Shown: one piece after another, positions 7,851-17,856 of the stretch
Layout of the letters: each line of letters starts with the position of its first letter
Numbering within the stretch: the stretch's first letter is position 1
Assembly (NCBI GenBank): GCA_050246315.1
Contig: JBFWWG010000001.1
Span: forward strand, 416,001-480,000
Source of the DNA: Nitrospiraceae bacterium
Lineage (GTDB): Bacteria > Nitrospirota > Nitrospiria > Nitrospirales > Nitrospiraceae
DNA: 64,000 nucleotides
Direction of reading: 5' to 3'
Position numbers and translations under genes: made by a program
Notes under the pieces: generated by a model
Databases searched by the model: none
What the model was told of the DNA's origin: nothing
The model's input: only the letters and a program-made list of their open reading frames with translations

Positions 7851-8192
7851 TCAAGAATGTGCTGATTTCTTCCCGAAATACTCCCGCCGGCTCACGGCCA
7901 CATCTGTCACGAACATCACGCCCGAATGCCGTTCAAACAGAGGCCGTAGCCCAGCCAGGATGGGCTCGACTTTTTCTGCCGGTACGACCGTCATGATCAT
8001 GACCAGGCTTTCCTGCTCGCTGAACATGAAGTGGGCTTCCCGGACCCCATGATGTCCCTTACCGGAAACATTGCCGATGATCGTGTACCCCGAGGCCTGA
8101 ACCTTGTCGAGCAGCTCGGTCACAAATGGACGGTTGTCACCCGAGACAATCACGCGTATCTCCTTCATCGGGTGCAGGGTCAGTGCGCTCAT
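7851..8192 (-). CDS. P-II family signal transduction protein (SbtB-like context)
   Basis: MKEIRVIV...SGYTIIGNVSGKGHHG...GVMFVTDVAVSR; directly downstream of dabA. Confidence 0.85.
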   Translation of the reverse strand: MSALTLHPMKEIRVIVSGDNRPFVTELLDKVQASGYTIIGNVSGKGHHGVREAHFMFSEQESLVMIMTVVPAEKVEPILAGLRPLFERHSGVMFVTDVAVSRREYFGKKSAHS

Positions 8193-8195
8193 GTC

Positions 8196-11100
8196 TCAAC
8201 TCCTTTCGATTCCGGCAGATAGATGCTCCGGCTGAGCACGCTCGACTTTCCGCCACTCCTTCGAGGGCAGATAGCGGTAGCACAGCCCGTCGGCGGGCTC
8301 GATCGCGACCAAGTGAACCCACTCGTTATGATAAAAATGCTGCAACACTTCATGACGGGCGATCAGCTTCTCCAGTTTGGCCAGCGGCGCCTCGACGACC
8401 GTGAGAAGACGCATCGGCTCATGATAGGGGATCTGCCCATTCATCACGGTCTGCCAAGCCAACCCGAGACGAAGATCGGACCAGGGGCCGGACATGATGC
8501 CGAGGCGTCCGACCACGTTATGATAGATCTTACTCCCTCCGCCATACACCTCGTTGTCCACAGTCGAGAAATAGTGCTCCATGTTGATCCACTGGGCCAC
8601 CAATTGCGGCCCCGTCAACAAGATTTCGAGCAAACGGGCTGTCGGATCTTCTCGATAGTCGTAGGAATGGAGGAACACGCGACCACCGAGGTGAAGCCCT
8701 TTCGTCAACGTTCGCCGCCCGATGATGAAGGCCGTATTTCCCGAGAGGCCCCATTCCGGTCGAACCTGGCTCCAATCGGCGCTTCGTTCGCGCACATGGG
8801 CCGCCGCCTCCTCGGCCGGGAGCACGGGGTTGCCATCCGGGAGGCGCGAACACCGTTCCTGGCTGGTCAGGCGTGCAGCTTCGCGGAAATCGGCGACCAG
8901 CCGCGCGATATCTTTGCGGTGGGTCGGCGGCACGTCTTCGAGGTCGAATAGCGTGACCTCATCCGTCGTCGTGTCCATCTGGCCGGCCAGAAAATGGGTG
9001 TCCGGCGGAATTTCGATGCCGCGTTTGGCCAGGCGTTCTCGGACCGGCGGTTTGTTCGCCATCGCAGCCAAGACGCGGGCGTTGGGGTTGCCTTCGTTTC
9101 CTCCACAGGCCCCGCAGTCCAAGGCGGACTCGAAGGGGTTGTTGTCTGACGTGCTGCCGTGCGCACAGAAGACGATCAAGCGGGCGAAATTTCTGGTCAA
9201 CCCCATCATCCGAAGCGTCGTTTCCACGGTCACCACTTGCTCGTCGAGCGTGAACCCGGTGCGGGTGATACGCTCCTTTTGCCGCGAGGCGGCCCGGGGG
9301 TTGATACGATAGTCCCGCCGAAGCTCCTCGACAAATCCGGCCAACTGCTCTCTGGAGAGATCCACCGCCCGGGCGGCCTCGCTGAGAAAGGGCTCGACCG
9401 GCGCGTCCGGGTCCAATGCGCGTCTACGCAGGGCTTCGACGAACTCATGATCCATGCGGGAACCGTGGAGGCCGAATCGATCGCGCAACGCTTTCCAGAT
9501 AAGCGCCCGCTGCTCCGCCACGATCATTTCTTCAGTTTCGGACGGAGGCAATTTGTCCACGGTGACGCTCGTGGCAATCGGTGGGACCAAGAGATGCCGT
9601 AACCATCCGGTCGCGCGCTTGTACAACGCTGGGAGCAGTGTCTTGCCGATGAGTGGAAAGCTGTAGAACCAGCCGAGTGATTCGACCATGACATAGGGGG
9701 TCACGACGTTTTCTTTGAGATCGTGCAAGAGCGTGTGACCCGCGTGGATCAGTTTGGCCCGCGATTCGTGCTTGGAGACGAAATGTTCGAAATAACTACG
9801 AGGAATTTCCCGCACTTCATTCTTCGCCCGCATGATGACCGGGAATTGCTCGGTCTCGTGCTCCTTCCCCCATGCTCGATATTTCATGAACACCGCGAAG
9901 AACCCGGCGAAGCCGTAGGTTTCATTCGCCCCGGTCGATTCCAAATGTCGGCGGAACGGCTCCGACCGCACATCGAGGCAATACACGGATTGAGAGTGCG
10001 GCCGCACGGACGGGCCCGAATCGTGGACCGCCCGGTCCTGATTGGCCGCCGCGCGCAGCAACATGCCGAGCAACTGGTCCTGGTAGGAGGCTTCAAATGA
10101 TCTGAGCCAGACCGGTCCATGGAGAGATTCGGGAAAGGCCTCCATCCAGTCCACGAGCTGACGGAGTTCCGCCGGGGCCGCTTCCAGTAGGACGGTCGGG
10201 ACCATCTCCAGGGCCTGTGCAAGCGTGAGCAACCGTCTAGCCATCGACCGCCTTGCGGCTCGGTCATGAAGAGGCCCGACCTCGGCCTGGTAGCGGTTGG
10301 CCAATTCATGCCACGCCTGTTCGGTTTCGCCGATCTCGACCAGTCGATCCACCTGCGCCGCATAGAATGGGAGAAGCCGGCCGCCAACCCGTTCTTTCCG
10401 CAAGAAATACTCATAGGGCCGTTGTCGCATGTAATCGGATATCACGTCGTAGTTGCCAGCGACTCCGAGGTGGTCCCGGCAGGTTTGTTGGACGAGTTCC
10501 CGTACGTACCAGAGGCGGACGGCGAGGAACTTGACCAACCCGACCTCGTAGGCTTCCTGCCAGGCATAGCCGGTGGTTTCAGCTCGCCATTTGATGAAGC
10601 CGGCCCAGCCTGGGAGGGCCGCGAGCTGCAAGGAGAGGTAGTCGAGCCGAAGGGATTCGGGAATCCCAAGTGCTTCCAAGCTGTCGAGCACGGCGTCTTC
10701 CGGATGATCGGGCAGCGCCGAAATTTTTATCCGGCTGTCCACGATTCCGCAGGGCGACCATTCCCTGGCCGCGAGCGCCTTCCATGCCGCGTAAAAGCCC
10801 GCCTCCCGTCCCGGCATTGGCCAGGTGGCGTGGCCTTCGTCCAGGAAGGCCTCGCACCACTTGATCAGCTCTGCGTTGATCTGCGCCCCGATCTGCGTGC
10901 CGAGGGTCTGATCGCACCAGCCTGACAACGTCCGGTAGCGCCCCAAGACCGCTAGGTCTTTCTGGATGTCTCCCGTCATACGATCCTGGAAAGTCGGGGC
11001 GGTCCAGAGAGCCAGATACTCGGCGATGGCCTCGACCTGTTCTTCGCCCGGTCCCTGATCGAGCAGGGCATCGAGCGGCTCATTGGTCGACGCCGACAGT

Positions 11101-11459
11101 CCATGGGTGAGACAGGCGCGCAGTACCTCGTGGTGCGAGATGCGGCAGGGGCCCAGGGTGAGGGACTGGCGCGACGCCAGGGGGTTCAGAGCCTTATCTA
11201 AGTGGTGGAGCTGGATTCGGCCCGAACGGAGGTAGTCGCGATATTGCTCCCCGGAGAGATAGCCCGTGCCTCCCAGATACTGCCGTCCCCGTTGGACCGT
11301 TTCATCGAAGGGCAAATATTCAAGGCTATGCAGCGGGTTGTGGTGGACGAATGTCCGCATCGGCCAATATTGCCCGATGACTTCGCTGGCCAGGCGAATG
11401 GTCCCGCGCAATTCCATGCGACGGATCTCACGATCCGGAGCCGTATTCAGCGGTTCCAT
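8196..11459 (-). CDS. dabA: Inorganic carbon transporter subunit DabA (DUF2309/MpsB)
   Basis: WPMRTFVHHNPL, CLDVRSE, HGS, LDCGACGG, DWSQVRPEWGL, GRVFLHSY, WINMEHYFS, HEPMRL motifs; start set at MEPLN. Confidence 0.95.
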   Translation of the reverse strand: MEPLNTAPDREIRRMELRGTIRLASEVIGQYWPMRTFVHHNPLHSLEYLPFDETVQRGRQYLGGTGYLSGEQYRDYLRSGRIQLHHLDKALNPLASRQSLTLGPCRISHHEVLRACLTHGLSASTNEPLDALLDQGPGEEQVEAIAEYLALWTAPTFQDRMTGDIQKDLAVLGRYRTLSGWCDQTLGTQIGAQINAELIKWCEAFLDEGHATWPMPGREAGFYAAWKALAAREWSPCGIVDSRIKISALPDHPEDAVLDSLEALGIPESLRLDYLSLQLAALPGWAGFIKWRAETTGYAWQEAYEVGLVKFLAVRLWYVRELVQQTCRDHLGVAGNYDVISDYMRQRPYEYFLRKERVGGRLLPFYAAQVDRLVEIGETEQAWHELANRYQAEVGPLHDRAARRSMARRLLTLAQALEMVPTVLLEAAPAELRQLVDWMEAFPESLHGPVWLRSFEASYQDQLLGMLLRAAANQDRAVHDSGPSVRPHSQSVYCLDVRSEPFRRHLESTGANETYGFAGFFAVFMKYRAWGKEHETEQFPVIMRAKNEVREIPRSYFEHFVSKHESRAKLIHAGHTLLHDLKENVVTPYVMVESLGWFYSFPLIGKTLLPALYKRATGWLRHLLVPPIATSVTVDKLPPSETEEMIVAEQRALIWKALRDRFGLHGSRMDHEFVEALRRRALDPDAPVEPFLSEAARAVDLSREQLAGFVEELRRDYRINPRAASRQKERITRTGFTLDEQVVTVETTLRMMGLTRNFARLIVFCAHGSTSDNNPFESALDCGACGGNEGNPNARVLAAMANKPPVRERLAKRGIEIPPDTHFLAGQMDTTTDEVTLFDLEDVPPTHRKDIARLVADFREAARLTSQERCSRLPDGNPVLPAEEAAAHVRERSADWSQVRPEWGLSGNTAFIIGRRTLTKGLHLGGRVFLHSYDYREDPTARLLEILLTGPQLVAQWINMEHYFSTVDNEVYGGGSKIYHNVVGRLGIMSGPWSDLRLGLAWQTVMNGQIPYHEPMRLLTVVEAPLAKLEKLIARHEVLQHFYHNEWVHLVAIEPADGLCYRYLPSKEWRKVERAQPEHLSAGIERS

Positions 11460-12751
11460 GCCGATGACTCCAACGAAGAGGAGAACCGATCCGGTGCGGT
11501 ACCCGTGTCGAACCACCTGGACGGCATCACGCCTAAGACGGCCAACAGGACAAGCACCAGGACCAGGGACGCCGCTTCTGTCTCCCGGACGTCCTCGTAG
11601 TGAAGATCGGAGCGAGGCCGACCGAAGAGCAGGCGCTGCATGAGGTCGAGGTAGTACCACGAAGCGGCCAGCCAGACGAGTGCGACGACGACAAACGAAC
11701 CCGGAAGTGTCAGATCCGGATGCAGCATCATGCCCATGAATCCGGAGAACACCCCGAAGGGCGGAAACCCCAACGCGGCCAGGGCCAACAGGGAAAACAG
11801 ACTTGCGAAGCGCGGCATCGGTTGAACCAATCCTCCTAGGGCGCGGAGATCGAGATCACCGTACCGGACTCTAATCACATGCCACCCGAGATGGAGTCCG
11901 CCGGTAGTCAGACCCACGGCTGAAACGAAGAGCGCCGCTTGAGACGGGAGGGAGTCCCCGATGGTTACGTACCACCAAAAAATCGAAAAGAACGCCAGGC
12001 TGGCATGGGCGAGGAGGTGCACCGGTCGAGACTGAGTCAGCGACCGCACCGTGCCGTAGAGCATGCCCGCCAGCGCCAACCAACCGATGCTGTCGCGGGC
12101 CGGCTCCGGGAGAGAGGGAAGCACGGTGAGCAGTTCCGGTAATCCGGCAACGGGTAGCGCCAACGAAAGGTAGGCGGACAGATTGCCCGGCAATCTGGTC
12201 AGGCAGGCCACGTAGCCCGCTTGTAACGGAAACAACGGAATGAGGACCAGGGAGACGAACAAAGCGGCCGGCAGCGAAACCGACTCCGGCGCGATCGCGC
12301 TCACCATCGCGGCAACGGCACCGGCTCCATAGGTCGCCATGCCCCAGGTGGGAGAGGGGGCCGAGTCGGTTCGGATCCTGGCAAGCAGCGCCACGATGAG
12401 CGTCAGCAACAGGCCCAGCAGGAACGACTTTACTGGGTTGGAGGCATTCGCGGTCGCCAGCCCGATCCCCATCAGCACGACCGTCATCAGCCAAGCCGGA
12501 CGGTTATCCCGATGGAGCGGCTGCCCCAGCAGCGAGGCGAACGCTGCCACCGGCAGCAGGCAGAGGAGCGGCATGTTCGAAGGCGGTGAGCTCCTCGCCG
12601 CGGCCGCTCCAATGACGGTCAGCAGGCTGGCGGCTATCGTGAGGAGGAGCCCGGTCTTGAACCCTCGGGGCTTCGACCATGCCAGCGTGCTCAAGAGGGC
12701 CCCGGCCGAGGGGACTGCGAGCAGCAGCCACGGCGTCATCCAAGCATCCAT
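11447..12751 (-). CDS. Proton-conducting membrane subunit (NuoM/MrpD-like) of the DAB complex
   Basis: Highly hydrophobic; LIPLFPLQ, LGGLVQPMPRFA, ALGFPPFGVFSG; overlaps the dabA start. Confidence 0.8.
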   Translation of the reverse strand: MDAWMTPWLLLAVPSAGALLSTLAWSKPRGFKTGLLLTIAASLLTVIGAAAARSSPPSNMPLLCLLPVAAFASLLGQPLHRDNRPAWLMTVVLMGIGLATANASNPVKSFLLGLLLTLIVALLARIRTDSAPSPTWGMATYGAGAVAAMVSAIAPESVSLPAALFVSLVLIPLFPLQAGYVACLTRLPGNLSAYLSLALPVAGLPELLTVLPSLPEPARDSIGWLALAGMLYGTVRSLTQSRPVHLLAHASLAFFSIFWWYVTIGDSLPSQAALFVSAVGLTTGGLHLGWHVIRVRYGDLDLRALGGLVQPMPRFASLFSLLALAALGFPPFGVFSGFMGMMLHPDLTLPGSFVVVALVWLAASWYYLDLMQRLLFGRPRSDLHYEDVRETEAASLVLVLVLLAVLGVMPSRWFDTGTAPDRFSSSLESSAWNR

Positions 12752-12768
12752 GACAATCTCAATTCTAG

Positions 12769-12866
12769 GGAAGGTCTGATCAATTCAAAATCCTAGGCCG
12801 CGATCCGCCAGATTTCCCGTCTTTTGTACACCTACCAATCGAAATTGGGAATTATTCAGACCTTCC
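12769..12866. mobile_element. 98-bp MITE with IS5-like ends, copy 1
   Basis: TIRs GGAAGGTCTGATCAATTC / GAATTATTCAGACCTTCC; flanked by CTAG (12765-12768, 12867-12870); identical to 31275-31372. Confidence 0.92.
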
Positions 12867-14567
12867 CTAGCCTCGCCGCCCGGCGGCGAGCCGCTCAAAG
12901 CGGGACGCCGCACGCATGATGGCCTGTCCCAGTTTCATATAGACCAGATCCACATACAGTCGGTTCATGAATATCACGTAGAGCGTCGCGAGGAGGCTTT
13001 CCACCCAGGTCGGCATTCGGATCGTGCGGCCGTGCGCCCGCGCATAGAGATAGCCCCAGCCGGAAATCGTCAGCAGGATCATGCCGACCACCATGAGATC
13101 GAAGAGGCGACCCGGCAGCGCCGCCGCCCTAAAGTAGCCGGCGACCTCGTCCGGGTTCGGATAGAGGAAGTGGGTGAAGCTTTCCGCCGCGAATAGATAG
13201 GTGAAGATGACCAGCACCAGGGTCATCAGCATGGCCAGCGACACCTTCCAAGACGCGACCTCATGAATGCGGGTCAGCGAAAGAATAGCCTGCGACGAGG
13301 TCACCCAGATGAAAAACAGAAAAATGACGGTGCCTTGAGATTCGAGGAGGGGAATGCGCAGGATTCCGTGGGTGCCCAGGAGGATCACCAGGGGGAGGAA
13401 CAATGTCGTGAAGAACCCGGTGGACCAGGTCAAGGTCGAGAACGGCCGGTTCTCTTCCTCCTGAGCGGGGTGAGGGAACGAGGGTTCTTGCCGAGCCTTG
13501 TGAATCACGTTGCCGCAGTTGAGAAACACCGTCGCCTTGAAAATCCCGTGGGCGATGAGATGGAACACGGCCAACGAAAACGCGCCAAGGCCGCATTCCA
13601 TGATCATGTAGCCCATCTGTCCGATCGTGGAAAATCCGAGCGTCTTCTTGATGTCGTTCTGCGTCAGCATCATGGTGGCGCCCAGGATCGCCGTGAGCGT
13701 ACCGATGGCGAAGGCCACGTGCAGCGCCGTCGGACTCAGCCCGTACAGCGGCGCCAGCCGATTCATGAGAAAGCCGCCCGCATTGATGATCCCCGCATGG
13801 AGGAGCGCGTGGACCGGGGTGGGCGCATAGAGGGAACTGGGCAGCCACACGTGGATCGGAAACTGCGCCGACTTGCTCATGCCGCCGATGAGGATGAGCA
13901 AAGTCACGGCGGTGGCGCCACCGACTTCCACACCGGGCCAGAACGAGAGCGTGATCGGTGTGGAGGCGGCGCGGGCGAACAGCTCTTGGAATTCGACCGT
14001 CTCGTACAGAGAATAGGCCAGCACAATCCCCACCAGGAACGCCACGTCGCCCACGCGGAGAAACCAAAAGGTCTTGCAGGCGCCGTCGAGCGTGGCGACA
14101 TGCGCATGATTGTGCGCCAACAGAAAGAGCAGCCACGACAGAATCTGCCAAAAGACGAACAGCATGAGGAGATTGGCGCTGGAGACCATGCAGAGCAGCA
14201 CGAAGGTTGCGAAAGCGATCAGACTCATGTATCGACGATAGTGACGATCCTGATACATGTAGCGGCTCGAATAGAGATAGATGATCGTCGAGACCAAACT
14301 GATCAACGTCATCATGACGGCGCTGAGACGGTCGATGAAGAAGCCCAGCGGGAGCGCAATTCCATCGAGGGCAACCGAATCGTACAATCGGACACTCACA
14401 GGCCCCTGCGAGGACACCAGCGCCAACGCCGTGACCGATCCCAGACAGGCCGCCACGATCGGCAGGGCCCCGAGCCTCACGTGCTGCTCTTCCTGCCCGC
14501 GATCGCTGAGCGCGATCAAGATCGCGGACACCAGAGGCAGGAGCGGAACGACAATCAACCACGACAT
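12867..14567 (-). CDS. dabB: Inorganic carbon transporter membrane subunit DabB (NuoL/ND5-like, MpsA)
   Basis: DRLSAVMM, RVGDVAF, KSAQFPIHVWLP, PTPVHALLHAG, DIKKTLGFSTIGQMG, HGIFKATVFL; upstream of DUF2309. Confidence 0.9.
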   Translation of the reverse strand: MSWLIVVPLLPLVSAILIALSDRGQEEQHVRLGALPIVAACLGSVTALALVSSQGPVSVRLYDSVALDGIALPLGFFIDRLSAVMMTLISLVSTIIYLYSSRYMYQDRHYRRYMSLIAFATFVLLCMVSSANLLMLFVFWQILSWLLFLLAHNHAHVATLDGACKTFWFLRVGDVAFLVGIVLAYSLYETVEFQELFARAASTPITLSFWPGVEVGGATAVTLLILIGGMSKSAQFPIHVWLPSSLYAPTPVHALLHAGIINAGGFLMNRLAPLYGLSPTALHVAFAIGTLTAILGATMMLTQNDIKKTLGFSTIGQMGYMIMECGLGAFSLAVFHLIAHGIFKATVFLNCGNVIHKARQEPSFPHPAQEEENRPFSTLTWSTGFFTTLFLPLVILLGTHGILRIPLLESQGTVIFLFFIWVTSSQAILSLTRIHEVASWKVSLAMLMTLVLVIFTYLFAAESFTHFLYPNPDEVAGYFRAAALPGRLFDLMVVGMILLTISGWGYLYARAHGRTIRMPTWVESLLATLYVIFMNRLYVDLVYMKLGQAIMRAASRFERLAAGRRG

Positions 14568-14902
14568 CGATGGTCCAAGCTCCCGCTCCGATCGTGCGAC
14601 AGGATTGCGCTATGGCGCGTCATCAGTTCCTAGCCACCTAGCCCGCATTCTGCATGACGGTTTGTCGCGAAAGTGCGCAGTCGCCATTCGTTGGACCGAT
14701 TGCGCGGGAAAGAGCAATGGGTACCCCCGCGCGGAGCCGCCAGGAAGGCAGGCAGACTTGAAACAGTCTGTTGACCCCACCGAGCGGCGAGGCCGCCTGC
14801 CACCATACCGTCGAAGCCGCATGGTGGCTTGTCGCAGCGGCGAAACCGCGATGGCAGTAGAAGCGTTCATGGGTCATGCGGACTCCCGAATGCTCGTCCC
14901 GT

Positions 14903-14959
14903 AAAAACACAAAAAGCCAGCTTCCCTCCCCGGTGAAACGGCAGGGCTTGAGCTGGCTT
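14903..14959 (-). terminator. Intrinsic terminator inside the dabB leader
   Basis: AAGCCAGCT (14914-14922) / AGCTGGCTT (14951-14959) with inner CCCT/AGGG and CCG/CGG pairs; UUUUUGUGUUUUU follows on the minus strand. Confidence 0.8.
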
Positions 14960-15110
14960 GTACTGCGACCGGCCTCTTCAGCGATCAGGAGAGCCGGCTG
15001 CCCTACAACCTCATGGCGATCGGCACGTCGCACGGCTCCTTCCGTCTCGCACCCGATTCCGGAAAGCAGGAGATGGATAGCACCGCCGACCCCATCAATC
15101 GGAAACAGGC
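14903..15110 (-). promoter_or_regulatory. Structured leader RNA / putative attenuator of the dab operon
   Basis: Several stems between promoter and terminator; GGUUGUA (15010-15004) can pair with UACAAGCC (14962-14955), which overlaps the terminator 5' arm. Confidence 0.6.
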
Positions 15111-15113
15111 ACC

Positions 15114-15143
15114 GTTATATTCTTCCATCACTTTCATGGTCAA
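15114..15143 (-). promoter_or_regulatory. Sigma70-type promoter for the dab leader
   Basis: Minus strand TTGACC-N18-TATAAC. Confidence 0.55.
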
Positions 15144-15289
15144 GAGAGCCCGCCCTTCCTGTGCCCCGACGTGACGGGGTAGTCGCGAGGTAGGGTGGTC
15201 GATCGCCGGGATGCACCATTGTGCTCTCCGGGACGCCTCTGCATAATGCGCGAGATCTCGATTGCCTATGGATTGGAAGGGGATCGGCC

Positions 15290-15673
15290 ATGTCGAATCA
15301 TCAGAAGGGAAGAGGGACGAAAGGCGAGATGGAGGCGGCCGTCAGGAATGCCATTATCAGATTTGAACAGGAATTCATGGGACGGGGACCGGACGATGTT
15401 CGGGCCTTTATCGTTCGAGATATCCTCCTGGTCCGACTGAAGGGGGTGCTCACGCCGGCGGAGCGGCAGCTCGCGAAGACGTCCGACGGGATCAAGATGG
15501 TGAAACAGATGAGACAGAACCTCATCGCCCAGGGGAGGGACCGTTTGTGCGAGCAAGTCGGCGAGATCACTGGCACCAAGACGGTGGCGCTCTTCACGGA
15601 TATCGACACCTTCGTGGGAGAACGGGTCATCGTCTTCACCCTGGACCGTGATCTCGAAACGTCTTTCCAATAG
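15290..15673 (+). CDS. DUF2294 / MpsC family protein
   Basis: TKGEMEAAV...FEQEFMGRGP...LVRLKGVLTPAERQL...TDIDTFVGERVIVFTL; divergent from dabB. Confidence 0.88.
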   Translation: MSNHQKGRGTKGEMEAAVRNAIIRFEQEFMGRGPDDVRAFIVRDILLVRLKGVLTPAERQLAKTSDGIKMVKQMRQNLIAQGRDRLCEQVGEITGTKTVALFTDIDTFVGERVIVFTLDRDLETSFQ

Positions 15674-15931
15674 GCCTCGACCGGGATACTAGGCTCAAGA
15701 AGCTCCTAGCCCGCGCCCGGATGATTCATGATGATTCGTGACGAAAGGGCGGAGTCGCGTCGCGAGATGGGTGCATGGAGACGTGAAGGTCTGAAGCAGA
15801 CTTGAAATAGTCAGTAGACCGACCGGGCGGCAAGCCCGCCCGGTCGGCTGCCCTTCCGGCGCAGCCAACCGTGTTAATGCGGGTGAGGGCTGCCCGGCCC
15901 GGTTTCGGCAGCGACAAAGCGCGAAGGAGCG

Positions 15932-16191
15932 ATGGGAAAACGCATCCGGGCGTATACTATTTCAAATCGAGATTTTTCAGCAGAAGCAGACGCTATTCAA
16001 GAACTGGCTAAGCATCGGCATCTCCGAGCCCTGGTTATCACCTGCTCAGACTCGCGGACCGTTACTGCCAGACTGCGCAAGGCCTTCCTGCATCTGCACG
16101 ACGAGGTCTATTCGATTGCCACGGCGATATCTGGGCCTACGACGCCAAGCGCGAGATCTTCGCTTCCTTGGACAAGAAGGTGGCGGGCTGA
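15932..16191 (+). pseudogene. Beta-carbonic anhydrase remnant
   Basis: AAGGAG RBS; ELAKHRHLRALVITCSDSR joined directly to a C-terminal-like VTARLRKAFLHLHDEVYSIAT and, after a frameshift, GDIWAYD; central HxxC region missing. Confidence 0.7.
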
Positions 16192-16377
16192 TCGCAGTCG
16201 AGACCCCTTGCACCTGGTTGGATGATGGCGCGGCGTGGTACAACGATCTCGTAGCCGTACTCCTCAAGGGGGAAGACAGGATCGTTGATCATTCCTCCGG
16301 CCGCTTACTCAAGGGCTCGAAGGTTCGTACCAATTTGACACAACGTCGAGCGCAGTCCTGTTTGATCGAACGACACC

Positions 16378-17856
16378 ATGCCGAATTTCCGTACACTCGA
16401 AGCCCTCCGTTTCGACAACACCTATGCGCGGCTGCCGGAGACCTTTTACGCCAAACTTAATCCAACGCCGTTTGCCACGACGCCCCACCTCGTCAGTTTT
16501 AATTCTGCGGCAGCCGCGCTGATCGATCTCGATCCCGAGCAAGCGACCAGACCTGAATTTGCCGGCGTCTTCGGCGGAAGCCTGCTCGTGCCGGGCATGG
16601 AACCGCTCGCGATGTTGTACGCCGGCCATCAGTTCGGGGTATATGTCCCGCAACTCGGCGACGGGCGGGCGATTCTCCTGGGCGAAGCGGTGAGCGACTC
16701 CGGCACGCGGTGGGACTTGCAGCTCAAAGGGGCGGGGTTGACGCCGTTTTCCCGCGACGGGGACGGGCGGGCCGTCCTGCGTTCGACCATCCGCGAGTAC
16801 CTCTGCTGCGAAGCGATGCAGGGACTGGGCATCCCGACCACGCGCGCGCTCTCGATCGTCGGCAGCGACGACCGTGTCTACCGCGAACAGATCGAAACCG
16901 GCGCCATGCTGCTGCGCATGGCCCCGTCCCATGTCCGGTTCGGCACGTTCGAGGTCTTTTACTATCGCCAACAGTATGACCAGCTTAGAATCTTGGTCGA
17001 TTATGTGATCGAGCACTTCTATCCTCATTTGATGTCCCGCTCCGAGAGGTATGCCGAATTCTTCGAGGAGGTCGTCGTTCGGACGGCGGAGCTGATCGCG
17101 CAATGGCAGGCGATCGGGTGGGCGCACGGCGTAATGAACACCGACAATATGTCCATTCTCGGCATCACGCTCGACTACGGTCCCTACGGCTTCATGGACG
17201 ACTATGAGCCGGGATTTATCTGCAACCACTCGGACCACAATGGGCGCTATGCGTTCGACCAGCAGCCATATATCGGCTTGTGGAATCTCAGTTGCCTCGC
17301 GCAGGCGCTGTTGCCGCTCGCGCCGAAGGAGGCTCTGAAGCCGGCACTCGACAGCTATACGCTCGTCTTCGACCGGGCGTGGCTGATGCGCATGCGCCGC
17401 AAGCTGGGTCTGGTACAGGAACGAGCCGACGACGCGGTGCTCGTCTCCGATCTGTTGAGCATGATGGCGGCAAGCCGTACCGACTACACGAGGCTGTTTC
17501 GTTCGCTGTGTGAGTTCTCGTTGAGCGACGACGGCCGCAACGAGACGATACGCGATCAGTTCCTGGATCGGCATGGATTCGACCGCTGGGGAGACCGGTA
17601 CCGGACCCGGTTGCGCGAAGAAGCGAGCCGGGACGAGGATCGCCGCCGCCGGATGCAGCGCGTGAATCCGAAGTACATCCTGCGAAATTATCTGGCGCAG
17701 GCGGCGATCGAGAAAGCGCAACAGAAGGAGTATGCCGAGATCGATCGCCTGCTGGTACTTCTCCATCATCCTTTCGATGACCATTCTGGGATGGAGTCCT
17801 ACGCGCTCCCACCACCCCACTGGGGGAAGCACCTCGTCGTGAGTTGCTCATCCTGA
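16378..17856 (+). CDS. selO: Protein adenylyltransferase SelO (YdiU)
   Basis: YAGHQFG, QLGDGRA, LKGAGLTPFSRDGDGRAVLRS, HGVMNTDNMS, NPKYILRNY; ends in CSS. Confidence 0.96.
   Translation: MPNFRTLEALRFDNTYARLPETFYAKLNPTPFATTPHLVSFNSAAAALIDLDPEQATRPEFAGVFGGSLLVPGMEPLAMLYAGHQFGVYVPQLGDGRAILLGEAVSDSGTRWDLQLKGAGLTPFSRDGDGRAVLRSTIREYLCCEAMQGLGIPTTRALSIVGSDDRVYREQIETGAMLLRMAPSHVRFGTFEVFYYRQQYDQLRILVDYVIEHFYPHLMSRSERYAEFFEEVVVRTAELIAQWQAIGWAHGVMNTDNMSILGITLDYGPYGFMDDYEPGFICNHSDHNGRYAFDQQPYIGLWNLSCLAQALLPLAPKEALKPALDSYTLVFDRAWLMRMRRKLGLVQERADDAVLVSDLLSMMAASRTDYTRLFRSLCEFSLSDDGRNETIRDQFLDRHGFDRWGDRYRTRLREEASRDEDRRRRMQRVNPKYILRNYLAQAAIEKAQQKEYAEIDRLLVLLHHPFDDHSGMESYALPPPHWGKHLVVSCSS

Follow-up and report, generated by a model that had tools for sequence, protein, structure and literature searches.

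Ion-responsive riboswitches of the terminator type precede transporter genes, among them the fluoride crcB, Na+ DUF1646 and Li+ nhaA-I motifs. In protein-dependent attenuation, LicT/BglG proteins stabilise RAT hairpins against terminators. Cyanobacterial carbon-concentrating genes are controlled by the LysR regulators CmpR and CcmR and by the P-II-like protein SbtB. Nitrospira and its relatives, which oxidise nitrite in soils, waters and wastewater plants, also fix CO2; to our knowledge, no regulation of carbon uptake has been described in Nitrospira. Literature listings and abstracts yielded no RNA-based control of DAB/MpsAB systems and nothing relevant on Nitrospira riboswitches or terminators, or on riboswitches in combination with bicarbonate or DabA.

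Excerpts of the report on mpsABC of Staphylococcus aureus (PMC6689103) state that mpsA transcription is lower at 5% CO2, that mpsC lies downstream of mpsAB behind a weak terminator and that the two do not share a locus outside the staphylococci. According to the same excerpts, deletion of mpsC caused no growth defect and the gene is dispensable for transport; they describe no leader RNA. A preprint on MpsAB of Bacillus subtilis, searched for these terms, makes no mention of ybcI, MpsC, a riboswitch or a terminator, and listings and abstracts on DUF2294 contained nothing relevant. We examined a window of 64,000 nucleotides from a Nitrospiraceae bacterium, for which an earlier note had proposed that a structured leader RNA before dabB acts as an attenuator responsive to inorganic carbon, with the product of a neighbouring DUF2294 gene as a candidate RNA-binding partner.

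Results

The genes downstream of the leader comprised a predicted DAB inorganic-carbon pump operon (7851..14567), with a DabA (PF10070) match of 872 bits and a Proton_antipo_M match of 159 bits (Table 1). The last gene of this operon encodes a P-II-like protein, both here and in a relative (G147). The gene divergent from the leader belonged to the MpsC/DUF2294 family (PF10057), scoring 120.7 bits against a curated cut-off of 23, and the block containing its candidate promoter was unchanged in all four same-genus loci.

Table 1. Features of the dab leader and neighbouring genes (coordinates of the window)
Feature	Position	Strand	Remarks
P-II-like gene	7851-8192	-	Pfam P-II 1.4e-22
Rest of dab operon after dabB	7851..12751	-	Pfam matches
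dabA	8196-11660	-	As listed from upstream GTG; Pfam DabA 4.1e-262
Second antiporter-like ORF of dab operon	11447-12751	-	Pfam Proton_antipo_M 1.8e-06
dabB, first gene of operon	12867..14567	-	NuoL/Mrp-like membrane subunit; ATG at 14567; Pfam Proton_antipo_M 1.6e-46, Proton_antipo_N 1.2e-12
MITE-like dispersed repeat	14637..14884	-	248 nt, between terminator and dabB
Leader RNA (predicted)	14903..15107	-	~205 nt, from putative start ~7 nt past the -10 hexamer to end of U-tract
Intrinsic terminator	14903..14959	-	AAGCCAGCU 14959-14951 / AGCUGGCUU 14922-14914, then UUUGUGUUUUU to 14903; inner CCCU..CCG/CGG..AGGG stem
P3 hairpin	14960..15006	-	GUA-GG-GC-A-GCCGGCUCUCC ... loop ... GAAGAGGCCGG-UC-GC-AG-UAC; conserved GG/AG internal loop
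Variable linker (P2 region)	15007..15032	-	Ends in GGUU 15010-15007
P1, long imperfect hairpin	15033..15088	-	5' strand ~15088-15070, 3' strand ~15048-15033; asymmetric internal loop near base
Leader promoter	15114..15143	-	-35 TTGACC 15143-15138, 18-nt spacer, -10 TATAAC 15119-15114
Candidate mpsC promoter	15219..15247	+	TTGTGC-N17-CATAAT, read from sequence
mpsC (DUF2294)	15290..15673	+	Pfam MpsC 4e-35; ATG at 15290; divergent from leader

The minus-strand promoter drawn in the earlier note was present as described, and its hexamers were identical in all four loci of the genus; at the equivalent site in other genera, TTGACG-N17-TATTAT or TTGTGC-N17-TATGGT was seen by eye. Simple consensus scans of positions 14300-16000 called neither a promoter nor a terminator and so spoke neither for nor against the leader; the -10 hexamer has a final C, and the terminator was missed because its loop has more than 8 nt. 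Transcription would start about 7 nt downstream of the -10 hexamer. The claim that a leader of about 200 nt ends in an intrinsic terminator before dabB was borne out, with a conserved promoter, leader and terminator spanning 15143-14903. Contigs from RNA libraries of four studies covered the leader and spanned the terminator (X2, 14738-15119; X3, 14622-15091); such contigs give no information on transcript ends, strand or level, may derive from DNA and are uninformative where they leave stretches uncovered.

The distance from the terminator to the dabB ATG, put at about 335 nt in the earlier note, was 336 nt in the window, and 248 nt of this gap proved to be an inserted repeat. A further 75 BLAST pieces of the repeat were detected elsewhere in the genome, and copies were present in 26 of 42 sampled genera. 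Alignment of 11 copies revealed inverted repeats at the two ends, some 20 nt long and of the form CCCACATTATTCATGAACG / CGTCATGAATAATGTGGG, and the ORFs overlapping the repeat had no Pfam family. The element is therefore MITE-like, being short, non-coding, multi-copy and flanked by terminal inverted repeats. It was missing at the equivalent site in two loci of the same genus (G001 and G003). The copy in the window may have its own promoter, which bears on the earlier note's view that the gap before dabB contains no other clear promoter.

The promoter, leader and terminator were kept in four of four genomes of the genus, as the proposal of a functional leader had required of its relatives. DNA BLAST of 61 relatives detected no leader beyond the genus, and a profile and a covariance model (CM) were needed for further reach. 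Of 30 family intergenic regions of the MpsC-dabB type, a set selected by the MpsC gene alone, 29 contained the leader core according to an nhmmer profile. The CM R1 search detected a single copy in this genome (G000:C1:430907-431020, equivalent to window positions 14907-15020; E = 2.2e-21). Of the 121 family genomes, 84 matched the CM; in a sample of the phylum, two families had matches in 16 of 18 and in 6 of 7 genomes, respectively. Weak matches (17 to 28 bits) in other Nitrospirota families were rejected, the two inspected (L189 and L190) being terminator-like and having neither GUAGGG nor P3. When 185,579 species genomes were scanned with an exact pattern, at least 119 loci were returned; the 80 matches listed had Nitrospira-type titles, except for two MAG contigs with odd labels. 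As judged by these searches, the leader RNA is restricted to two families of the Nitrospirales.

The earlier note had been unable to assign the leader to a known riboswitch class. A scan of positions 14000-16500 against the 4227 models of Rfam 15, which include those of the crcB, DUF1646 and nhaA-I motifs, with E values up to 10, likewise gave no relevant match; chance-level matches to PyrR206 (18.9 bits) and ctRNA_pGA1 (18.7 bits) lay outside the leader. Scanning of eight other leaders with E values up to 1 gave three sub-threshold matches, to unrelated families only. By this comparison, the leader RNA matches no catalogued RNA family.

The locus stood above chance because the leader is conserved and not because of its single-sequence fold, which for 209 nt was no more stable than shuffled sequences (z = -0.18); a value of -1.75 for 541 nt was not counted as evidence of structure. 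In the centroid structure, nothing remained but the terminator and the inner portion of the long hairpin. The 5' stems proposed earlier (CCGAUU/AAUCGG and GAUGG/CCAUC) could be found in the sequence but did not appear in the minimum free energy fold and were lost in same-genus sequences. In place of the multi-stem domain drawn from them, the conserved 5' element was another helix, P1, which was placed on the window by eye from the similarity of its strands (GGCGGUGCU.. / ..GGAGCCG). In the largest lineage, 7 of 11 pairs of the P1 homologue had changes on both sides and 93.8% of cells were paired, and the covariation score was reached by none of 500 shuffles. The linker that follows P1 differed in length and sequence between lineages.

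The long hairpin GUAGGG...CAGUAC of the earlier note was found at 15006-14960, and both it and the terminator were supported by covariation. Changes on both sides were present in 8 of 12 P3 pairs among 131 sequences; in the 28 sequences collected by gene context, the pair beside the internal loop was UA in 14, CG in 11 and UG in 3. GUAGGG and CAGU.C were invariant in these 28 sequences, which were collected without a pattern; for loci numbered L053 and above, the search pattern itself fixed GUAGGG, CAGURC, GCCAR and GYUGGCYUU. Core variants such as GUGUGG and GUGGAG do exist among the CM matches. The terminator consisted of a 9-bp outer stem and an inner stem followed by UUUGUGUUUUU. Two of its stem pairs covaried in the 131 sequences (AU 92 and GC 34; AU 115 and GC 11), and within the genus a T-to-C change was compensated by an A-to-G change. 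For P3 and the terminator together, 93.5% of cells were paired and 15 of 25 pairs had changed on both sides; none of 500 shuffles equalled this score and slid controls were only 22% to 48% paired. Overall, these comparisons indicated a conserved, structured 5'-leader domain with covariation in P1 and P3, as is generally looked for in a riboswitch. A leader peptide was considered and rejected: there was no conserved ORF, and by eye the indels among same-genus leaders were not multiples of three.

Competition between the long hairpin and the terminator, as drawn in the original proposal, would be feasible in the majority of sequences. P3 abuts the 5' arm of the terminator and an overlap is possible, whereas covariation in the shared pairs was absent because both sides are invariant. 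A GG(C/U) element located 1 to 2 bases 5' of GUAGGG was nearly invariant and was pairable with GCC in 128, 104 and 117 of the 131 sequences for the three pairs. In the window, GG at 15010-15009 could pair with CC of AAGCC in the terminator 5' arm. When transcripts were cut before the terminator 3' arm, the 5' arm paired with GG(C) in 75 of 131 folds. The antiterminating extension comprised only 2 to 3 G-C pairs in most lineages. A switch by extension of P3 is compatible with these data and is put forward as a proposal.

Among the 80 pattern matches listed, with flanks of 1.5 kb, the gene downstream was dabB in 62, and the first downstream gene among the remainder was MnhE in 9, SulP in 2 and DabA in 1; a second DabA-type leader was seen in addition to this last case. 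One genome (G052) had three leader copies within 10 kb, preceding SulP, DabA-HtrA and an MnhE-Mrp-like cluster. The proposed link to inorganic carbon became firmer because SulP, DabA and Mrp-like genes of relatives also carry the common core upstream, and the core looks, from these contexts, like the mark of an inorganic-carbon uptake regulon. At four loci (L032, L040, L043 and L044) the element ended about 20 to 28 nt before the dabB start, a spacing too short to accommodate a separate promoter and hence pointing to attenuation in cis. Where HtrA and MnhE share a strand, some cores lay between these two genes, with no divergent gene present, and in G147 a LysR gene lay directly upstream of one DabA leader.

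The 5' domains differed strongly between gene contexts, and one DabA leader had only about 40 nt before GUAGGG. The core common to dab, SulP and Mrp-like contexts was a single hairpin of about 60 nt with a conserved internal loop; protein-binding hairpins are also of this size. In some MnhE-type leaders, an upstream GUGCCC complementary to the 3' strand of P3 was noticed by eye, with one apparent compensatory variant.

At 27 of 30 loci in the family, the mpsC gene adjoined the leader in divergent orientation, and it was located within 1.5 kb upstream in 55 of the 62 dabB-type pattern matches listed. It was also divergent where the downstream gene was SulP (L088) or an unassigned ORF of 352 amino acids (L086), and for MnhE-type leaders it was present 4 to 14 kb from the motif in four of five genomes. 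Of 121 family genomes, 80 had both the RNA and MpsC, 30 had neither, 4 had the RNA only and 7 had MpsC only. A 99%-complete genome (G089) with a START-domain gene upstream of its dabB leader, and a genome consisting of a single 2.1-Mb chromosome (G145), had kept the leader with no PF10057 match. Beyond the range of the RNA, 1,487 MpsC cluster representatives were detected at E values up to 0.001, and Atlas clusters were labelled Actinomycetota and Cyanobacteriota. An AlphaFold2 model of MpsC was alpha/beta with a mean pLDDT of 93.6. There was no sequence relative in the PDB at E values up to 1, and the ESM Atlas search returned MpsC's own family only and no model. Foldseek found nothing at E values up to 0.001, its best matches being YslB, Bet3/TPC6 and H-NOX (E = 4e-3 to 2e-2; TM, 0.38 to 0.51), and the best Z score in a wide VIA-align search was 6.9, to unrelated alpha/beta proteins and under the level that the tool regards as meaningful. 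The predicted fold of MpsC thus contains no recognisable RNA-binding fold. The suggestion that DUF2294 is the RNA-binding partner therefore retained the support of its usual position beside the leader, but was weakened by the two MpsC-free genomes and by the modelled fold.

Discussion

The leader is best explained as a cis-acting transcription attenuator of a new, Nitrospirales-confined RNA class that gates inorganic-carbon uptake operons, a reading to which we give about an even chance of being correct. A strong promoter would drive a leader of about 200 nt composed of P1 with its conserved asymmetric internal loop, the variable linker, P3 with its conserved GUA-GG-G / C-AG-UAC loop and, directly 3' of P3, the terminator. 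By default, the terminator would form and RNA synthesis would halt before dabB, a polarity that we infer. For read-through, P3 would grow downward as GG(C) upstream of GUAGGG paired with GCC of the terminator arm, and the extended P3 would unzip the base of the terminator beside the U-tract. Our leading guess for the signal is an ion or small ligand indicative of carbon status and bound directly by the RNA, which would then be a riboswitch. Against this reading stand the 5' domains that differ between gene contexts: given the short DabA leader, with its ~40 nt before GUAGGG, a shared sensor would have to be the ~60-nt P3 core, whose size would equally suit a protein-binding hairpin. More tentatively, the leader may represent the first riboswitch class to read inorganic-carbon status, switching the DAB, SulP and DabA-Mrp-like uptake set of nitrite-oxidising Nitrospirales by means of a P3 core that extends into the terminator. 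The candidate ligand would be bicarbonate, held through metal ions as fluoride is, or a metabolite signalling carbon limitation; we consider this fuller version possible, though on the doubtful side.

The hairpin could instead be read by a protein. MpsC might bind the loops of P3, and perhaps P1, and so favour the extended P3 over the terminator; RAT elements, likewise, are internal-loop hairpins that share a few bases with a terminator. The divergent position of mpsC at dabB, SulP and 352-aa-ORF loci, its proximity to MnhE-type leaders and its co-occurrence with the RNA all favour such a factor, and its dispensability for transport in S. aureus would fit a regulatory role (excerpts of PMC6689103). 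This co-occurrence is confounded, however, by the location of both in one locus, and survival of the leader in G089 and G145, the wide distribution of MpsC compared with an RNA limited to two families and the weak fold matches of a confident model make antitermination by MpsC unlikely. Attenuation by another protein acting at the P3 loop, such as a P-II-like partner, a LysR-linked system or an RNA chaperone, would account for a shared core that is a single hairpin whereas the 5' domains differ. The P-II gene that closes the dab operon here and in G147, and the LysR gene beside a G147 leader, offer candidates, but we know of no RNA binding by P-II or LysR proteins and regard this account, too, as improbable.

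Two further readings dispense with sensing by a leader. Having its own strong promoter and strong terminator, and separated from dabB by 336 nt in the window, the unit should accumulate as a discrete RNA of about 200 nt, as would be expected of a trans-acting small RNA gene or of a constitutive "speed bump" terminator that lowers dab expression. Yet the unit always faces and directly precedes carbon-uptake genes (dabB in 62 of the 80 matches listed, and MnhE, SulP or DabA in others), stops 20 to 28 nt short of the start codon in a number of genera and occurs in up to three copies per genome, each before a related operon; its unpaired loop nucleotides are also kept beyond the needs of a plain terminator. 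We hold this explanation to be quite improbable. The divergent intergenic location, and a conserved block at 15212-15250 that overlaps the candidate mpsC promoter, could alternatively reflect a DNA-level operator for the mpsC and dab promoters, with the RNA structure incidental. A strand-specific U-tract and compensatory changes in three helices would be unexpected for protein-binding DNA, and the core also occurs with no divergent gene, between HtrA and MnhE on one strand, so that an operator is very improbable indeed.

As a conserved, folded leader that ends in a terminator, is common to nitrite-oxidising Nitrospira relatives and belongs to no catalogued family, the proposed attenuator is a promising candidate for a new switch of carbon-uptake genes. 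Being common to DAB, SulP and Mrp-like DabA clusters, it would define a carbon-uptake regulon from sequence alone. An RNA of about 60 to 200 nt is a compact target for direct ligand or protein binding, and the leader could yield a genetic part responsive to CO2 or bicarbonate. For DUF2294/MpsC, the strong synteny suggests a functional link, an idea limited by the two MpsC-free leader genomes.

In comparison with the crcB, DUF1646 and nhaA-I riboswitches, the leader likewise follows a constitutive-looking promoter, has conserved internal loops and a terminator platform and occurs in several copies per genome before membrane-transport operons, including those of the Mrp/Mnh type. It differs from them in matching none of the 4227 Rfam models, in its restriction to two Nitrospirales families and in genes that centre on DabA/DabB and SulP, and so on inorganic carbon and not a metal cation. 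As in RAT elements with LicT, SacY or BglG, the basal pairs of an internal-loop hairpin would overlap the terminator 5' arm by a few nucleotides, and stabilisation of the hairpin would block termination; in contrast to those systems, no CAT-PRD protein was encoded in the neighbourhood of the leader, and the MpsC model is an unrelated alpha/beta protein. Control by CmpR, CcmR and SbtB in cyanobacteria shares the task of switching bicarbonate/CO2 uptake, and the Nitrospirales clusters include a gene for a P-II-like protein and, in relatives, one for a LysR protein, whereas the conserved Nitrospirales element is a terminator-bearing RNA leader and not an operator. The S. aureus mpsABC locus has the same combination of a DabB/DabA-type pair with an adjoining DUF2294 gene, from which the Nitrospira-type arrangement differs in that mpsC is both divergent and co-located, as seen at 27 of 30 loci.

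Layout of the locus

The features of the locus are collected in the table below. The mpsC and dabB start codons were separated by a spacer of 722 nt. An earlier note had proposed a carbon-responsive attenuator in this spacer, and its promoter hexamers (TTGACC and TATAAC, 18 nt apart), hairpin and terminator could all be read in the window sequence, with the terminator lying 336 nt before the dabB ATG as claimed. Its 5' stems (CCGAUU/AAUCGG and GAUGG/CCAUC) were missing from the MFE fold of the leader and lost in same-genus sequences. Consensus scans of positions 14300-16000 called no promoters and no terminators, and the fold of the 209-nt leader showed no extra stability compared to its own shuffles (z = -0.18). 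The window sequence on its own proves nothing, and the case for the leader therefore depends on comparison with relatives.

Features of the mpsC-dabB locus (window coordinates)
Feature	Position	Strand	Basis or remark
P-II-like gene	7851-8192	minus	Pfam
dabA, 1154 aa as listed	8196-11660	minus	Pfam
Second antiporter-like ORF, 434 aa	11447-12751, between dabB and dabA	minus	weak Proton_antipo_M match, 1.8e-06
dabB	12867-14567	minus	Pfam
MITE or MITE-like repeat	14637-14884	minus	spacer positions 407-654
MITE pieces of high contig depth	14730-14776 and 14813-14852		RNA-library contigs
Leader	15107-14903	minus	P1, linker (P2 region), P3, terminator
Putative P1 counterpart	about 15088-15033	minus	judged by eye
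Candidate mpsC promoter	15219-15247	plus	TTGTGC-N17-CATAAT
mpsC (DUF2294)	ATG at 15290	plus, divergent from dabB	PF10057, 4e-35
String resembling part of the MITE	~15800-15890		3' of mpsC

The block holding the candidate mpsC promoter was invariant in 4/4 genomes of the genus. The DabA of the window was unusually long, its Pfam match covering residues 89-1115 against a 747-position profile. A 460-aa ORF without a Pfam family occupied the position of the 434-aa ORF in another genome, G147.

Conservation and range of the leader

Within the genus, the promoter, leader and terminator aligned at 74-92% identity, and the terminator stem had one compensatory change (UA to CG). A wider collection of loci was made by the MpsC protein alone. 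MpsC was present in 87 of 121 family genomes, and dabB was its divergent neighbor in 27/30 fetched loci. An iterated nhmmer profile detected the leader core in 29 of the 30 MpsC-linked spacers, one of these 29 (L031) matching in its 5' part only. With R1, a covariance model built on the 3' core, one copy was found in the window's genome and matches in 84/121 family genomes. Across 151 genomes sampled from the phylum, matches were obtained in 16/18 and 6/7 genomes of two families, and outside these the matches were weak only. Two loci from other Nitrospirota families (L189 in G211 and L190 in G173; 23-28 bits) were rejected as terminator look-alikes without P3; their terminators closely resemble that of the leader (AAGCCAG..CUGGCUUUUUU). 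An exact-pattern scan with one genome per species over 185,579 species detected at least 119 loci, and the 80 titles among the matches listed were Nitrospira, Nitrospiraceae, Nitrospirales or Nitrospirota, bar two oddly labelled MAG contigs.

Three genomes were flagged as unpublished. G078 (row L051) and G100 (row L045) entered both leader alignments and the MpsC and R1 tallies of 121 genomes, G009 entered a 61-genome DNA search only, and no claim depends on these genomes alone. Judged from the sequence comparisons, the leader RNA with its intrinsic terminator is real, conserved in Nitrospirales and uncatalogued.

A repeat between the terminator and dabB

The 61-genome search, performed on related genomes, gave many matches per genome to part of the spacer in 26 of 42 genera, and BLAST detected 75 further pieces elsewhere in the window's genome. 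Terminal inverted repeats of ~20 nt were visible across 11 aligned copies, each overlapped by one long ORF or none. This repeat of ~250 bp is a MITE or MITE-like element. A short form of ~155 bp and modular pieces were also observed. Within the genus, the MITE was present at the dabB site of the window's genome and G002 and missing from that site in G001 and G003, where the terminator lay ~90 nt before the dabB ATG.

Two MITE pieces, with the hairpin CAGACUGUUUCAAGUCUG, had very high depth in RNA-library contig sets (489 in X3; 195 and 51 in X5) and loose ends on both sides; other MITE copies, or an abundant RNA bearing that piece, must be strongly represented in these libraries. The string 3' of mpsC resembled the MITE's TTTCAAGTCTGC and may be a decayed repeat copy; the same stretch gave a chance-level Rfam match to ctRNA_pGA1 (18.7 bits, E = 1.5).

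Structure of the leader RNA

Among 28 leader sequences gathered without a motif pattern (alignment A3), GUAGGG, CAGU.C, GCCA and GG.UGGC were invariant. RNAalifold drew P3 as GUA / GG / GY ... RC / AG / UAC, with the terminator beginning at the very next base; the P3 pair adjoining the internal loop was UA in 14 sequences, CG in 11 and UG in 3. In A4, a set of 131 distinct sequences, 93.5% of cells in P3 and the terminator were paired and both-side changes occurred in 15 of 25 pairs, the letters of the scan pattern being forced in loci from that scan and the covarying columns free. None of 500 shuffles reached the observed values, and sliding the partner by 1-3 columns reduced pairing to 22-48%.

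The 5' half varied by lineage and retained the long hairpin P1, which read GGCG-(C/A)UG-stem ... stem-GA-CGCC in the largest lineage. There, both-side changes were found in 7/11 pairs; the covariation score was reached by 0/500 shuffles and the count of both-side pairs by 3/500. The window strands GGCGGUGCU... and ...GGAGCCG appear by eye to be the counterpart of P1. A short P2 hairpin was present in some lineages and missing from others.

Gene contexts

In 1.5-kb flanks, dabB was directly downstream in 62 of the 80 pattern loci listed, and mpsC lay within 1.5 kb upstream in 55 of those 62. For the other 18 listed loci, the first downstream gene was MnhE (PF01899) in 9, SulP (PF00916) in 2 and DabA in 1. 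On a larger stretch (L172), L121 was seen to precede a second DabA and L120 an MnhE gene. L086 preceded a 352-aa ORF without a Pfam family, the only dabB match of L091 was upstream on the opposite strand, L073 was cut by the contig end, and L075 and L109 had no downstream gene assigned.

In a small-genome Nitrospirales family, the MnhE genes lead Mrp-like clusters located after DabA-HtrA. One genome, G052, had three leader copies within 10 kb, before SulP, DabA-HtrA and MnhE-MbhD/E-antiporter subunits. The full order, CitMHS - leader - SulP - leader - DabA - HtrA-like protease - leader - MnhE - MbhD/E - three antiporter-like subunits, was seen in L187 (G052:C1:1206000-1223000), L172 (G147) and L173 (G145). 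DabA may work there with an Mrp-like membrane module in place of a single DabB. The Mrp-like genes were not taken as general sodium genes, since they occur inside DabA clusters. The theme shared by these contexts is, on gene content, inorganic-carbon uptake, and the leader is predicted to control carbon-uptake operons in Nitrospirales.

Mode of action and possible partners

In four loci (L032, L040, L043 and L044), the element ended 20-28 nt before the dabB start, so dabB must be transcribed through the terminator. This spacing makes an independent small RNA gene less likely and, in those genomes, speaks against a separate dabB promoter; the window is excepted, as the MITE intervenes. The leader is probably a cis-acting attenuator. 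RNA-library contigs from four studies gave low-depth cover of the leader, MITE and dabB, with some of them spanning the terminator; being contigs, they give neither transcript ends nor levels.

P3 and the terminator are adjacent and not mutually exclusive. A conserved GG(C), located 1-2 bases 5' of GUAGGG, is complementary to GCC of the terminator 5' arm; pairing of the two would lengthen P3 and open the bottom five terminator pairs beside the U-tract. The three extension pairs were possible in 128, 104 and 117 of the 131 sequences, and they lack covariation because both sides are invariant. Each leader was also folded after truncation before the terminator 3' arm: GG(C) paired with the 5' arm in 75/131, sequence farther upstream did so in 37, and the arm stayed unpaired in 7. 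Since the extension is weak relative to the terminator, termination would be the default state; under carbon scarcity, a bound factor would stabilize the extended P3.

That the RNA itself directly senses a small ligand has about an even chance. The earlier note had proposed MpsC as an RNA-binding partner. Adjacency in most loci stood, in both the family loci and the dabB-type pattern loci; mpsC was also divergent beside leaders preceding SulP (L088) or the 352-aa ORF (L086), and lay 4-14 kb from the motif in 4/5 genomes with MnhE-type leaders. Against MpsC being an indispensable partner, the leader was kept in G089 (99% complete; dabB leader) and G145 (a single 2.1-Mb chromosome), both of which lacked matches to PF10057 (E up to 0.01), and MpsC is widespread in other phyla. 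Lists compared by hand for the 121 genomes gave 80 with leader and MpsC, 30 with neither, 4 with the RNA only and 7 with MpsC only, a table that cannot tell function from linkage because both features share one locus. The AlphaFold2 model of MpsC (pLDDT 93.6; helix-strand-strand-helix-helix-strand-strand) had YslB, Bet3/TPC6 and H-NOX domains as best Foldseek matches (E 4e-3 to 2e-2, TM 0.38-0.51), a wide structural search gave unrelated alpha/beta proteins (top Z 6.9), and no sequence relatives were found in the PDB; the modeled fold neither favors nor rules out RNA binding. A requirement for MpsC is improbable, and one for some other protein equally so.

The dabB leader of G089 (L192; G089:C5:178500-184500) reads GUGGAG instead of GUAGGG, with a START/polyketide-cyclase-domain gene upstream, and provides a natural variant for probing the role of the loop nucleotides.

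Comparison with known systems

According to PMC6689103, growth of Staphylococcus aureus was unaffected by deletion of mpsC, and expression of mpsA is reported to be lower at 5% CO2. The same paper holds that outside the staphylococci mpsC does not sit together with mpsAB homologues, whereas in Nitrospiraceae it was the divergent neighbor of dabB in most fetched loci (L023-L052).

The Rfam scan suggested by the earlier note matched no known family to the window's leader or to eight others, and listings, abstracts and term searches of the literature yielded no account of RNA control of DAB/MpsAB genes. In regulatory logic, the leader is similar to those terminator-type riboswitches whose targets are ion transporters. 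RAT hairpins, bound by LicT-type proteins, overlap terminators by a few bases, and their likeness to the leader is equal to that of the riboswitches.
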